Numbered from the stretch's first letter, positions 5,474 through 49,720 are shown. The stretch is 64,000 nt of DNA from Escherichia phage EcNP1 (NC_054910.1); one strand, 5' to 3'. Translations and numbers: made by a program. The notes: a model not told the origin generated them from the sequence alone.

Positions 5474-5722
5474 TTACTTCAGTGTTACCACAAAGTGACG
5501 AACTGCTTTTCGTGCGGCAGAAGCCAAAGGCTTAGCATATTTAAGTTCATCTTTTTCCTGAAGCTCAGCAGCTAATGCAGTTTGAGCAGGATTCAGATGT
5601 TTGAAATAACGCAGGATTTCAAGAGCTTCGGCTTCAACATCAATAGATGCGCCATAGTTTTCGTGACCATTATTCCATGCGTTTCGTTGCAGTTCAAGAG
5701 CGTGTTGTAATTGTTTAATCAT
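5474..5722 (-). CDS. rIII: rIII lysis-inhibition accessory protein
   Basis: 82 aa, MIKQLQHALELQRNAWNNGHENYGASIDVEAEALEILRYF matches recalled T4 RIII; position between 30.x genes and 31. Confidence 0.85.
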   Translation of the reverse strand: MIKQLQHALELQRNAWNNGHENYGASIDVEAEALEILRYFKHLNPAQTALAAELQEKDELKYAKPLASAARKAVRHFVVTLK

Positions 5723-5861
5723 TTAAAAATTCTCGTTAGAGATTAAAACTCGGTAGTCACGTTCTTCTGAATTTCATCTTCTTTCGACAGATCTCTCAGT
5801 TGTAGACTACCACGTAGAATTGTTCGGTTAACTTATTATTCCGACACCCAATTCATATTAT

Positions 5862-5869
5862 TATTTATA
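5862..5869 (-). promoter_or_regulatory. late promoter TATAAATA between 31 and rIII
   Basis: Exact TATAAATA on minus strand abutting gene 31 stop. Confidence 0.45.
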
Positions 5870-6205
5870 TCACTTATAAAGACACGGAATAGCTTTATAG
5901 TGACAGGTAACGAATTTTTGTTTAATTTCTTTTGGCTGCTTAAGTCCCAGAGCTACAAAAGGATGCGGAACGTTTCGAATTTGACCAACTGGAAGAGAAG
6001 TCAAATCACCAACTTCGCAGAAACCTTCAGGAACATCAGGACCAACGGAGTGAACTACACACAGTTCAGGAACTTCACCTTGAACACGTTTACCGATAAT
6101 AAGTCCTGATTCTGTAACTTCTTCATCACCGGCTTGCGCAGGTTCAGAAACTAAAATAACGTATTCACCGACAGCACGAATTGGTAGCTGTTGTACTTCA
6201 GACAT
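5870..6205 (-). CDS. 31: co-chaperonin gp31 (GroES-like)
   Basis: 111 aa, [39 protein letters not shown] matches T4 gp31. Confidence 0.9.
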
Positions 6206-45481: not shown

Positions 45482-45512
45482 ATTATACCACATCCTTGTG
45501 GTAAAGTAAACT
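45482..45512 (-). promoter_or_regulatory. early promoter upstream of rIIA.1/rIIA
   Basis: Minus strand GTTTAC, 17-nt spacer, TGGTATAAT (perfect extended -10). Confidence 0.6.
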
Positions 45513-47331
45513 ATTGGCTCATCCATTCTTTACGAAGGTCAGCATTATCTCCCATGAGCATTTCAAAAAGCTCTTTCCAGTTCTCAGGAAGTTTAACAAC
45601 ATCATATACTGGGTTTTGAATCATCTCACGATATTCAGATTTTTCCAAAGAGCCAAGTCCCTTAATATAACGGATGCTATGTTTAGGTAGAGCATCTTTA
45701 GCACTCTCATATTCAGCGACTGTATAAAACCATTCTTGTTTTTTACCGACCTGAGCGATGATTACAGGAGTTTTGACAAAGCGAATTCTTCCTTGTTCAA
45801 ACAGTTCTGGCCAATTACTAAAAAATCCGAGCAGAGAAGGATAAATGCTTCCTAGACCATCATGGTCAGCATCAGTCATAATAGCAATATTATGATAATT
45901 CAAGTTTTCGGCTTTTTCACCAAGAACTAATCCAGTGATTGCGCAAATATCAAACAGCTCTTTGTTTTTAAGCATATCAGCATATGACATACCCCAGCTG
46001 TTAAGAACTTTACCACGCAATGGATAACCGCCATGAAGTTCTTTATCACGAACATCAATAAGATATCCGATAGCAGAATCACCCTCAGTCAAGAAAAGAG
46101 TAGTGTCAGCATCTTTACCACAAAGATTCGCTTTAATATGTTTATGAACCTTAGCTTTAGAGGCCTTTTTAGCTGCTTTAGTTTCTGCTGCTTTTTCTGC
46201 CGCCAATTTACGAGCCAAGGCAGCTTCAATGATTGGCATTAAAATTGCTTCATTATTTAAAATAGCACGTGAAATCTTTTTAGCATCAAGCTGAATATGA
46301 CTACGAATTTCACCAAATGGAGAAGTCAAACGCTCTTTAGTTTGAGAATCAAATCGCATGTTTTTCATATCACGAACAAACATAACGATAGTCAAACATT
46401 CTTTAACACGTGCTTTAGTTACATCAATTTTGAATTTACGTTTGATTTGTGGAATAAGGTCTTCACAAATATCATCCATAACACAATCAATATGATGGCC
46501 ACCATTCTTGGTATGAATGTTATTGACGTATGTTAATTGACGAAAACCATCCGGTGAACGACCGACCGCAATAGAACAATTTTCTTGTTCTTGAACGATA
46601 GCATGTTCATCATATTGGCGTGCATATTTCTTAAAATTACCCTGAACCTTTTTACCATTAAAGGTAAATTGAATATCAGGATAAACTACTGCAAGTGTCT
46701 GGAGACGATCCAGTGTAATGTCAAGATAAACTTGAGATAGCTCATTAGTTTCAAATGACATAAAATCAGGAATAAAAGTAACGCGAGTTCCTTTCCATTT
46801 TCCAGGAATATCTTCCCATGATTTATTTTCCATGCCATTCGAGCAGCGAACTACAATATTATTTTGACCGTCGCCAGTTTCACCGACAAACATCACAGAA
46901 AAAATGTTAGTTAAACTAGAACCAACACCGTTCATACCGCCAGTGACGCGTTCTTTATCATCACCAAAGTTACCACCTGCTTTTGGAATAGTCCATGCAG
47001 CAACAGGACCAGGAATTTCTTCACCGGTAGGTGTTTTAACCATCGCCTGTGGAATACCACGACCGTTATCTTCAACTGTTACTTGATTGTTTTTGATAGT
47101 AACATTAATTTTATTTGCGAATTTAAACTTAGTACGAATACCTTCATCTACTGAGTTATCAATAATTTCATCAATAAGCTTAACAAGACCAGGTACATAC
47201 TGAACACTTTCCCATTTACCAAACAGAAAGCGCTCATGCATTTCATTAGCAGAAGAGCCAATATACATGCCGCTACGCTTTTTGATATGTTCAATATCGC
47301 TCAGAATTTTAATTTCATTCTTAATCATCAC
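45511..47331 (-). CDS. 39: DNA topoisomerase II large subunit, uninterrupted
   Basis: 606 aa, (M)MIKNEIKILSDIEHIKKRSGMYIGSS GHKL ATPase plus TOPRIM region continuous to the C-terminus; equals T4 gp39 plus gp60 in one ORF. Confidence 0.93.
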   Translation of the reverse strand: MMIKNEIKILSDIEHIKKRSGMYIGSSANEMHERFLFGKWESVQYVPGLVKLIDEIIDNSVDEGIRTKFKFANKINVTIKNNQVTVEDNGRGIPQAMVKTPTGEEIPGPVAAWTIPKAGGNFGDDKERVTGGMNGVGSSLTNIFSVMFVGETGDGQNNIVVRCSNGMENKSWEDIPGKWKGTRVTFIPDFMSFETNELSQVYLDITLDRLQTLAVVYPDIQFTFNGKKVQGNFKKYARQYDEHAIVQEQENCSIAVGRSPDGFRQLTYVNNIHTKNGGHHIDCVMDDICEDLIPQIKRKFKIDVTKARVKECLTIVMFVRDMKNMRFDSQTKERLTSPFGEIRSHIQLDAKKISRAILNNEAILMPIIEAALARKLAAEKAAETKAAKKASKAKVHKHIKANLCGKDADTTLFLTEGDSAIGYLIDVRDKELHGGYPLRGKVLNSWGMSYADMLKNKELFDICAITGLVLGEKAENLNYHNIAIMTDADHDGLGSIYPSLLGFFSNWPELFEQGRIRFVKTPVIIAQVGKKQEWFYTVAEYESAKDALPKHSIRYIKGLGSLEKSEYREMIQNPVYDVVKLPENWKELFEMLMGDNADLRKEWMSQ

Positions 47332-47356
47332 TTATCCTCGTTTGGTTTCGGGAATA

Positions 47357-47381
47357 TTATACTCCAGTAATCATAAAGCTA
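47357..47381 (-). promoter_or_regulatory. middle-promoter-like element upstream of gene 39
   Basis: Minus strand TAGCTTTA (MotA-box-like, one mismatch), 12-nt spacer, then TATAAT. Confidence 0.35.
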
Positions 47382-47397
47382 AAGGCCCGAAGGCCTT

Positions 47398-47667
47398 TTA
47401 TTTAAAACGGATAGTCGAATCCTTGAAGAATAGACCAGAACATACTGTTCCTTCTACTTTCTGCCCGGTAGGTCCAATAGCACGAAATCCAGTGTGTTGG
47501 AAATCATTTTCAGAGCAACCGAACCAATTATATCCAGTGATTTCAATATTAGTAAAACCACTTGAAGACAAAACTTTGGTTGCATTATCGGCATCAGTAC
47601 ATCCTACTAAAGATACTGCTAATACTAATGCCGCGATAGAACGATTAACATATTTCATAATTTTCAC
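47398..47667 (-). CDS. predicted lipoprotein (89 aa)
   Basis: N-terminus MKIMKYVNRSIAALVLAVSLVGC has signal peptide plus lipobox. Confidence 0.6.
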   Translation of the reverse strand: MKIMKYVNRSIAALVLAVSLVGCTDADNATKVLSSSGFTNIEITGYNWFGCSENDFQHTGFRAIGPTGQKVEGTVCSGLFFKDSTIRFK

Positions 47668-48041
47668 TTAAATTTAATGGCTTGAAGGAGACTAATAATT
47701 CTCAAGCGACTTCTTTCATCTTTAACTGTAAAAGAAAGAGGGTCACCAGATTTCATAGTGATGGTGCATCCAAAATCAAAATCTTCTGTAACTTCTTCGA
47801 ATAGGTCAAATTCTTCATCATAAATTAGAACATTACTCTGAAAACTGTGAAGAATTTTTCCATCATTTCCAGATGCTGTACTAATCATTGTAACATTATT
47901 ACCCTTCATATCTTCAACGATAAATTCGCCTGTAGATATTACATTACTAATAGAACCATTCCTATAAATAGCAGAAAATAGATATTTCTTTTCTTCACCT
48001 TCGCGAATGCGATATTTCTTACCGATTTTAAACATAATCAT
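47664..48041 (-). CDS. hypothetical protein (125 aa)
   Basis: ORF track; coupled. Confidence 0.55.
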   Translation of the reverse strand: MIMFKIGKKYRIREGEEKKYLFSAIYRNGSISNVISTGEFIVEDMKGNNVTMISTASGNDGKILHSFQSNVLIYDEEFDLFEEVTEDFDFGCTITMKSGDPLSFTVKDERSRLRIISLLQAIKFK

Positions 48042-48214
48042 CCTTTAAGTAAGTCGTAAAATCCACCATTCACATGCTTAGGAGCAGAAGGCCGACGAGT
48101 AGACAAACGATGACATTTAGGGCAAACATCATTTTCTCGTTCAGAAATCTTTTTAATTTTTTCATATTCATGCCCGCAATCTTCGGATTGGCATTTATAA
48201 TCATACATTGGCAT
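48038..48214 (-). CDS. zinc-ribbon mini-protein (58 aa)
   Basis: Read by eye: MPMYDYKCQSEDCGHEYEKIKKISERENDVCPKCHRLSTRRP...; two CxxC pairs; stop overlaps downstream ATG. Confidence 0.45.
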   Translation of the reverse strand: MPMYDYKCQSEDCGHEYEKIKKISERENDVCPKCHRLSTRRPSAPKHVNGGFYDLLKG

Positions 48215-48216
48215 AA

Positions 48217-48636
48217 TTATTCCTTAAAGTGTGCTTTCAACATCTGATACAAGGACCATGCCTGTTCATTATTTTCAATAGTAACTTTCATTACCGGGAA
48301 TTCTGTGAAATCTTCTATTTGTTCTTGCTCTTCCTGCTCTTGTTCTTCAGCAGCCTGATATGGATTTTCCACTTCATCAAAGAACCTAGCTTCACTTTTT
48401 GAAAGCCAAATAAAGTCTTCATCCAAAACATCTTTACCAGAAGATAGTACTAAATTTCCAGTAGATGACAAAATTTTAATAGGACGCCCAAGAGCGTCCA
48501 CATCTAAAATTTTAAAAGGATACATTCGTAAACGTCGCGCATAGATTCCGTTATCAGTATGGTCTTTAATAAAATTTTCTTGAGCTTGTTTATTTTTAAA
48601 TTGATACCATTTATTAACTTCAAATTTAATAGCCAT
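48217..48636 (-). CDS. hypothetical protein (139 aa), goF position
   Basis: ORF track; acidic [10 protein letters not shown] stretch; assignment by position and size only. Confidence 0.5.
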
Positions 48637-48851
48637 TAATAAATTTCCTTCCAGTAAGTTGTGCCATCTTCAGTAATTTCACGAAATACACCGTAAATTG
48701 GCTGTTTATCACCAACCTTTTCATACACATAAACCGAAGTCAAGTGAGTAAACTTAACGGTATGTTCCTTTTGAACCACTACCAAATCTGGATCGAATAA
48801 TACATCTTCAAATTCGTCATTAGTGCAGTTCTGAACAATTTTACGTTTCAT
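48636..48851 (-). CDS. hypothetical protein (71 aa), cef position
   Basis: ORF track; size equals T4 Cef; assignment by position and size only. Confidence 0.5.
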
Positions 48852-48864
48852 TACAATTTCCTCA

Positions 48865-49146
48865 TTAATTGAACAGTGGAGCGATGCGTTTCAGAAGAGT
48901 AGCAGCACCTTTGGCAAATTTTACATCATGAAAAACAGTTTCTTCTTCCGTTACAACACGAACTTTAATGTTTTCACAATCCCAATTTTTGCGAACAATC
49001 TTCAAAAGCTGCAGTAAATCTTTACATTCAGCAATATCGATAACACACCCACGAGAATCTTCCATTATCGCACGATAACCGTAAGCCATACCATAATCGT
49101 TGAAAGATTGCTCGATGATAATTAAGTTTTCCATTTTATTCTCCAA
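48865..49146 (-). CDS. hypothetical protein (93 aa)
   Basis: ORF track. Confidence 0.5.
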   Translation of the reverse strand: MENKMENLIIIEQSFNDYGMAYGYRAIMEDSRGCVIDIAECKDLLQLLKIVRKNWDCENIKVRVVTEEETVFHDVKFAKGAATLLKRIAPLFN

Positions 49147-49231
49147 GTTGTTTTCTGTATCAGTAGTTGATATTGATATAGTACCATAATCAACTACTGA
49201 TGTATATAGTTTTATGAAAAAATTTTAAACT

Positions 49232-49720
49232 TTATGCATAGAGAGCTTTGCTATAGTGTTTAATCCAACTTTCAGGAATGACTTTGTATGTTCCTAAAAA
49301 TACCACGTTATACAACTTAACGCCATCTTCTACCCACTGATCGGTAATGTATGCGCACATAGCACGAGTATAAACAGCCGCTCCATCATCTTTGATAAAT
49401 TTAAATTCACAAGGAGAAACGAACTTAATAGCCTGACCGAGTTTCCACTTAAAATCTACACCTACATGTGAAGTATCAATCGTTTCAATTCCTTTAGCAG
49501 GAACAGCTTTCAAAAACGCAGATTCAAGAAATTTCGCACGAACATAGCCAAACTGAGGTTTAGACTTTCCATCTTTAGGAATGATACGCACTTTTACTTC
49601 AGAATCTTCATCTTTAACGCCATGTTTAAGCTGAATGCTTACAATTTCGACCAATTTTCCTGCTGCTTTAGAACGGGATTTATCAGATACACGAGCAATT
49701 TCACCAATATTAATAATCAT
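49232..49720 (-). CDS. MotB-like protein (162 aa)
   Basis: Size and position match T4 MotB; C-terminal ITDQWVEDGVKLYNVV motif shared with the next ORF. Confidence 0.55.
   Translation of the reverse strand: MIINIGEIARVSDKSRSKAAGKLVEIVSIQLKHGVKDEDSEVKVRIIPKDGKSKPQFGYVRAKFLESAFLKAVPAKGIETIDTSHVGVDFKWKLGQAIKFVSPCEFKFIKDDGAAVYTRAMCAYITDQWVEDGVKLYNVVFLGTYKVIPESWIKHYSKALYA

Follow-up and report, generated by a model that had tools for sequence, protein, structure and literature searches.

Bacteriophage T4 carries two genes, 31 and 39.2, whose products retool the host chaperonin GroEL for the folding of phage proteins. The two products are unrelated in sequence. As described in PMC5153855, Gp31 takes the place of GroES as chaperonin lid, and Gp39.2 (NwgI) shifts the conformational equilibrium of GroEL. 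According to the same account, T4 39.2 encodes a peptide of 58 amino acids (aa), genetic and biochemical data suggest that GroEL is moved toward an open conformation, and this open form binds GroES and Gp31, that is, both the host and the phage cochaperonin. Growth of a T4 39.2 deletion mutant is described there as entirely blocked when the host carries specific groEL mutations (PMC5153855). The summary of T4 39.2 and GroEL in PMC4396842 is the same; suppression of groEL/groES alleles is likewise reported for the T4 protein, and both articles give Ang and Georgopoulos (Genetics 2012;190:989) as the primary source of the NwgI work.

A second point of comparison is the FmdB family of zinc ribbons (PF09723; TIGR02605, CxxC_CxxC_SSSS). 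Its members share an N-terminal MPxYxYxC signature, two pairs of metal ligands with some 17 residues between them and, further on, an (A/S)P...GGF/W-Y motif. The canonical first knuckle is CxxC, and several longer members of the family (for example P0026, P0035 and P0045) extend into a long Ser/Lys/Glu-rich tail.

Identity and coding status of the 58-codon ORF

The DNA analysed here is a stretch of 64,000 nucleotides (the window). On its minus strand lies an ORF that ends in a TGA at 48040..48038 and translates to MPMYDYKCQSEDCGHEYEKIKKISERENDVCPKCHRLSTRRPSAPKHVNGGFYDLLKG (58 aa; Table 1). The initial annotation had placed a 58-aa gene at this position, and both its coordinates and its translation were reproduced exactly. 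Over the 1.6 kb that surround the ORF, identity to many Tequatrovirus genomes is 95-97% (97% to IME340), and the window is, as judged from its sequence, that of a T4-like phage (Tequatrovirus).

The ORF product is 81% identical over its full length to Gp39.2 of T4T, a resequenced T4 (HM137666; MPLYDYKCQSKDCAKEYEKIKKISERDTDVCPDCHRLAVRLVSAPKHVNGGFYDLLKG, 58 aa), and 92% identical to the 59-aa Gp39.2 of RB69, the closest named allele. In T4, T4T and RB69, 39.2 lies directly downstream of goF, exactly as in the window, and in all of them it is set between goF and gene 39; more distant homologs adjoin gene 39 in RB49 (Krischvirus) and RB43 (Pseudotevenvirus). Because of its identity to the T4T and RB69 proteins and its position next to goF and gene 39, the ORF is assigned as the ortholog of T4 gene 39.2 (Gp39.2, NwgI). 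It is an already known gene, experimentally characterised in T4, and not a discovery. RB69 39.2 was reportedly the first clone to emerge from the GroEL selection. The locus had been called unannotated, which holds for an ORF track with a 60-aa cut-off and for that track only: hundreds of GenBank and RefSeq relatives annotate 39.2, under the names gp39.2, 'FmdB-like transcriptional regulator', 'zinc ribbon domain protein' or 'hypothetical protein'.

Table 1. Features of the 39.2 locus and of gene 31 in the window
Feature	Position	Strand	Description and basis
39.2 ortholog (NwgI)	48038..48214	minus	ATG start, 58 codons plus TGA; FmdB-family zinc ribbon
First predicted zinc knuckle, C8-QSED-C13 (Cx4C)	48176..48193 (codons 8-13)	minus	CxxC in canonical members
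Second predicted zinc knuckle, C31-PK-C34 (CxxC)	48113..48124 (codons 31-34)	minus	Sequence and alignment
Shine-Dalgarno-like AAGGA of 39.2	48221..48225	minus	6 nt before the ATG, within the last goF codons
goF (comC-alpha), upstream neighbour	48217..48636	minus	139 aa; 83% identical to T4T goF
39.2/downstream junction, AAA-GGA-TGA-TT-ATG	48033..48046	minus	Sequence and relatives
Downstream goF-like gene	47664..48035 (125-aa ORF, 47664..48041)	minus	About 123 aa from the conserved ATG; phrog_622
Gene 31, GroES-like cochaperonin	5873..6205	minus	Putative functional partner; tblastn with T4 Gp31

T4 Gp39.2 resembles the window protein in its length (58 aa in T4T), in its Cx4C...CxxC ligands and in an identical C-terminal SAPKHVNGGFYDLLKG. 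It differs at 11 of 58 positions, and the substitutions are clustered at residues 11, 14-15, 27-28, 33 and 38-42. As in the window, goF precedes 39.2 in T4 and the two genes meet at a TAA-TT-ATG junction; in T4, however, 39.1 comes next after 39.2, whereas a goF-like gene of about 123 aa intervenes in the window. RB69 Gp39.2 (RB69ORF006c, NP_861696; Mosigvirus) ends in KKG, one residue longer than the window protein, which ends in KG, and in RB69, as in the window, the next gene is of the downstream type (RB69ORF005c, its homolog). T4-like phages carry 39.2 alleles of two classes, namely GH..STRRP, the type of RB69 and the window, and AK..AVRLV, the type of T4.

The T4 reference record (NC_000866 / AF158101) carries a truncated 39.2 product of 45 aa, in place of the 58 aa given by resequenced T4 genomes. 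Over positions 5560..5900, NC_000866 shows only 95.9% identity to the remaining T4 genome records, all of which differ from it here (T4T, KJ477684-6, MT984581 and others); those among them that annotate 39.2 give it 177 nt. The reference also shortens 39.1, to 65 aa from the 86 aa of T4T. This stretch of the reference derives from the 1992 entry M89919, and the short versions of 39.2 and 39.1 probably reflect sequencing errors inherited from it.

The length of the ORF is not in itself evidence for a gene, because shuffling the window (35.5% G+C) 50 times gave on average about 56 ORFs that reached 58 aa, and about 30 when an ATG start was required. An antisense ORF of 57 aa, moreover, overlaps 39.2 at 48074..48247, and both observations would suit a chance ORF in AT-rich DNA with no gene at the locus. 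Against this, the antisense ORF is only 40 aa long in the T4 reference sequence, and the Shine-Dalgarno and start of 39.2 are conserved. Of the 553 stop-to-stop frames in the window that reach 40 aa, only 1 carries the cysteine pattern C(2-4)C-(12-22)-CxxC. A tblastn search with the 39.2 protein returned relatives in 884 phage records, 850 of which cover at least 80% of the query, with E = 3e-33 for identical copies in other Tequatroviruses. Among eight alleles (28 pairs, Nei-Gojobori method) dN/dS was 0.01-0.13, at synonymous divergences from 0.1 to saturation (dS also given as about 0.5 to above 2), which is the pattern left by purifying selection on a translated frame. The T4 deletion mutant, as described in PMC5153855, has a phenotype. 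The chance reading, to which we give practically no credence, is ruled out by the 884 relatives, the dN/dS pattern and the Pfam match, which together with the NCBIfam match exceeds curated cut-offs. By these measures the 39.2 ORF is a real, strongly conserved small gene, and an example of a functional gene missed by a 60-aa ORF cut-off.

The FmdB-type zinc ribbon: conservation and predicted fold

The 39.2 protein matched Pfam PF09723 (Zn_ribbon_8) with 45.7 bits against a gathering score of 34.4 (E = 6.7e-12) and NCBIfam TIGR02605 (FmdB family zinc ribbon) with 44.9 bits against a cut-off of 31.3, in both cases over residues 1-41; it is also matched by phrog_1076. These scores bear out the earlier proposal of a small zinc-ribbon gene, and the protein is, on profile evidence, a member of the FmdB zinc-ribbon family. 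Its N-terminus, MPMYDYKC, fits the family signature, its four cysteines are C8, C13, C31 and C34, and the downstream (A/S)P...GGF/W-Y motif of the family is present. The protein stops soon after GGFY, in contrast to the longer members with their extended tails. Two CxxC pairs separated by 17 residues had been proposed. The separation is as proposed and the second pair is indeed CxxC (CPKC), but the first is a Cx4C (CQSEDC), two residues longer than the canonical knuckle.

This spacing is a recurrent variant. All 56 distinct relatives compared retain two Cys/His ligand pairs, arranged as CxxC/CxxC in 25, CxxC/CxC in 7, Cx4C/CxxC in 6 and CxxH/CxxC in 5, with a few other spacings in addition. 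The Cx4C/CxxC relatives are all of the T4/RB69 type, to which the window protein belongs, and CxxH/CxxC is the RB49 type; variants of the first pair across the family comprise Cx1C, Cx2H and Cx4C. In an alignment of 46 sequences M1, Y4, C8 and C34 are invariant, and P2, Y6, C13 and G51 nearly so. Each of 14 diverse relatives drawn from phage genomes and IMG/VR contigs matches PF09723. A word-indexed protein search returned 7 protein clusters, and a profile search with 14 diverse relatives returned 68, every one of them with PF09723. Loss of the cysteines or of the reading frame in close relatives had been named in the initial annotation as the outcome that would speak against the gene; both are kept. 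Frameshifted relatives amount to only two database entries, P0005 and P0007, in which the frame breaks after C31-P32. These entries come from Shigella phage vB_SsoM_113 and Salmonella phage Manna, respectively; each is 47 aa long, runs into an overlapping frame and ends in ...VIVCLLVGLLLLSM, and the frameshifts are either assembly errors or natural knock-outs.

An AlphaFold2 model of the window protein, computed from the 46-sequence alignment, reached a mean pLDDT of 69.7 and a pTM of 0.41, with values of 73-76 over residues 1-40 and 54-61 in the tail. In this model, which is of moderate confidence, three short strands are placed at residues 3-8, 16-20 and 37-40, an arrangement that a zinc ribbon would be expected to show. 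Foldseek comparison of the model with the PDB gave no significant fold match (best E = 0.6, TM about 0.5). Among the top neighbours were zinc-binding modules (the MCM N-terminal domain, S27e and Sir2) and small proteins such as aRF1, RNA polymerase subunit P, Elf1 and RbpA, all below significance. A sequence search of the PDB for a solved relative likewise found none, the best hit being ribosomal protein bL31 at E = 0.78. Family membership predicts a zinc-ribbon fold, and the model is compatible with it. On this prediction residues 1-40 make up a small sheet of three strands, C8/C13 together with C31/C34 would hold one zinc ion, and the C-terminal tail, which bears the conserved motif APKHVNGGFYDLL, is predicted to be flexible.

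Probable GroEL modulation by the 39.2 product and competing proposals

T4 Gp31 aligned with the window by tblastn over 111 of 111 residues at 100% identity (E = 2e-71). With a gene 31 identical to that of T4, the partner machinery is therefore present in the window. By analogy with its T4 ortholog, the window protein very probably does the same job as NwgI, namely GroEL modulation. It would act on host GroEL and shift it toward the open conformation that binds GroES and Gp31, as orthology with T4 suggests. Folding that depends on GroEL and Gp31, for example that of the major capsid protein, could then proceed in hosts whose GroEL binds cochaperonins poorly. The phage would need the gene on particular groEL variants but not on standard hosts, and the gene would serve as an accessory for host range and fitness. 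For the window allele itself we infer zinc binding, early co-expression and GroEL modulation.

A common product name in the databases implies a different role, namely binding of the zinc ribbon to DNA or to RNA polymerase with an effect on host or phage transcription early in infection. 'FmdB-like transcriptional regulator' is the product name on T4 NP_049623, on the RB69, RB49 and RB43 proteins and on many relatives; phrog_1076 bears the same label, and RbpA, archaeal RNA polymerase subunit P and Elf1 are among the weak fold neighbours of the model, at TM values of about 0.4-0.5. The label, however, was taken over from the family name and has no experimental basis, and we know of no more than a proposed regulatory role for the founding FmdB protein. 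The fold matches fall short of significance (E of at least 0.6), and within the 58 residues Pfam recognises the zinc ribbon only and no DNA-binding domain; Pfam, the PDB sequence search and Foldseek together revealed no DNA- or RNA polymerase-binding domain in the 39.2 protein. In the accounts of PMC5153855 and PMC4396842, as far as they extend, the only direct genetics and biochemistry reported for T4 point to GroEL. The database label stands at odds with this sole experimental evidence, and we consider a transcriptional role very unlikely.

A zinc-ribbon adaptor could alternatively have a main target that is not GroEL, or not GroEL only, such as the topoisomerase gp39/gp52 or some other host protein, with the effect on GroEL being secondary. 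Adjacency to gene 39 is a recurrent feature of 39.2 homologs, seen in Tequatrovirus, Mosigvirus, Krischvirus and Pseudotevenvirus, and the T4 record says of gene 31 that it 'also affects topoisomerase'. Overproduced T4 Gp39.2 reportedly kills the host, an effect that would be in keeping with further targets. Gene order is nevertheless broadly conserved in this T4-like region, so that the linkage need not be functional, and the published phenotypes are, in the account of PMC5153855, specific to particular groEL mutant hosts. We regard a different principal target as unlikely.

If GroEL modulation is the function, a candidate for the contact site is the tail of the protein, APKHVNGGFYDLLKG, whose Gly-Gly-hydrophobic stretch might bind the groove of the GroEL apical domain in the manner of the GroES and Gp31 mobile loops. 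The GroES mobile loop reads ..AGGIVLTG.., and the Gp31 loop, taken from the Gp31 sequence matched in the window, reads ..ESGLIIGK..; the resemblance of the tail to these loops was judged by eye. The zinc ribbon would then be a scaffold only, and the two allele classes, exchanged as a mosaic block, would tune the contact to different host chaperonins. The GGF/WY motif of the tail is common to the whole FmdB family and so is not phage-specific, and the odds of this mode of binding appear small. If true, mimicry by the tail would supply a mechanism for NwgI and perhaps the first function for the large FmdB family.

Gene order, junctions and local mosaicism

The minus-strand order around the locus is cef, goF, 39.2, the goF-like ORF, 39.1, 39, rIIA.1 and rIIA, in agreement with the earlier placement of the ORF in a gene 39-proximal cluster. 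On the same strand rIIA encodes 725 aa, gene 39 606 aa and cef 71 aa; cef matches Pfam T4_Cef at E = 5.5e-35, and beyond it lie motB-region genes and dexA. The goF stop codon, TAA at 48217..48219, is followed by TT and then by the 39.2 ATG, and the TTTAAGGAATAAT(T/A)ATG junction upstream of 39.2 is conserved in T4T, RB69, IME340 and IMG/VR relatives.

At the downstream junction the last two sense codons of 39.2 provide the AAGGA Shine-Dalgarno of the next gene. The conserved start of this gene is the ATG at 48035..48033, 2 nt past the 39.2 stop, where the IME340 RefSeq CDS begins. An ATG two bases past the stop is shared by the window with IME340, L005, L018, T4T and RB69-type relatives; in relatives L011, L013 and L020 the next ATG lies 5 to 6 bases past the stop. 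A second, in-frame ATG at 48041..48039 forms an ATGA with the 39.2 stop and is the start of the listed 125-aa ORF. Translational coupling had been ascribed to this overlap. The overlap exists in the window, but the nearest relatives lack the overlapping ATG (GGG-TGA in IME340, GGG-TAA in L005 and GGA-TAA in L018). Because it is absent from the closest relatives, the overlap is taken to be incidental, and coupling through the ATGA was rejected as a route. Translational coupling or re-initiation at the 39.2/downstream junction is plausible from the tight stop-NN-ATG packing of the genes.

A scan of 47200..49400 found 7 promoter-like sites compared with 9.2 in shuffled sequence, which is no excess, and a terminator scan over the same interval found none. 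No dedicated promoter signal rises above the shuffles, and 39.2 is likely co-transcribed with the upstream early genes. The packed minus-strand run cef-goF-39.2-(goF-like gene)-39.1-39 points to early expression, with each Shine-Dalgarno in this putative early run sitting in the end of the preceding gene.

The downstream goF-like ORF is 38% identical to RB69 ORF005c (E = 7e-24) and is absent from T4 and T4T, in which 39.1 directly follows 39.2. It shares phrog_622 with goF. Pairwise BLASTP of the 125-aa ORF against goF was not significant (E = 1.2), so the kinship of the two rests only on the shared PHROG profile. In some Tequatrovirus records the match to the T4 segment is split in two and extends over about 715 bp, compared with 341 bp, which suggests that the downstream gene is a presence/absence polymorphism in Tequatrovirus.

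The genes flanking 39.2 are T4-like. Window gp39 has 98.5% identity to its T4 counterpart across the first 473 residues and 79% identity to that of RB69, cef is 97% identical to T4T as against 65% to RB69, and 39.1 is 94% identical to T4T; goF is intermediate, with 69% identity to RB69. The 39.2 allele, despite these flanks, is nearer RB69 than T4T. Because an RB69-like 39.2 is set between T4-like cef, 39.1 and gp39, the pattern points to a local mosaic exchange at 39.2 that included the downstream goF-like gene.

Several further features of the neighbourhood were observed. Gene 39 (45511..47331, minus strand), encoding the topoisomerase II large subunit, is a single unsplit ORF of 606 aa in the window; the insertion in T4 gene 39, with mobA, 60.1 and gene 60 (50-nt translational bypass), is absent here. 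39.1 (47398..47667, minus strand) is listed with 89 aa from a GTG, and its relatives start at MKY.. and are 86 aa long. The N-terminus of 39.1, ..RSIAALVLAVSLVGC.., resembles a lipoprotein signal peptide with a lipobox and is missing from the 65-aa version in the T4 reference. Upstream of a 93-aa ORF (48865..49146), an intergenic inverted repeat occupies 49159..49201, with 20-nt arms that are 85% complementary and a 3-nt loop. Just upstream of this repeat on the minus strand lies a promoter-like sequence, GTTTAA-16 nt-TATATA, and the two may represent an early promoter with an RNA hairpin behind it.
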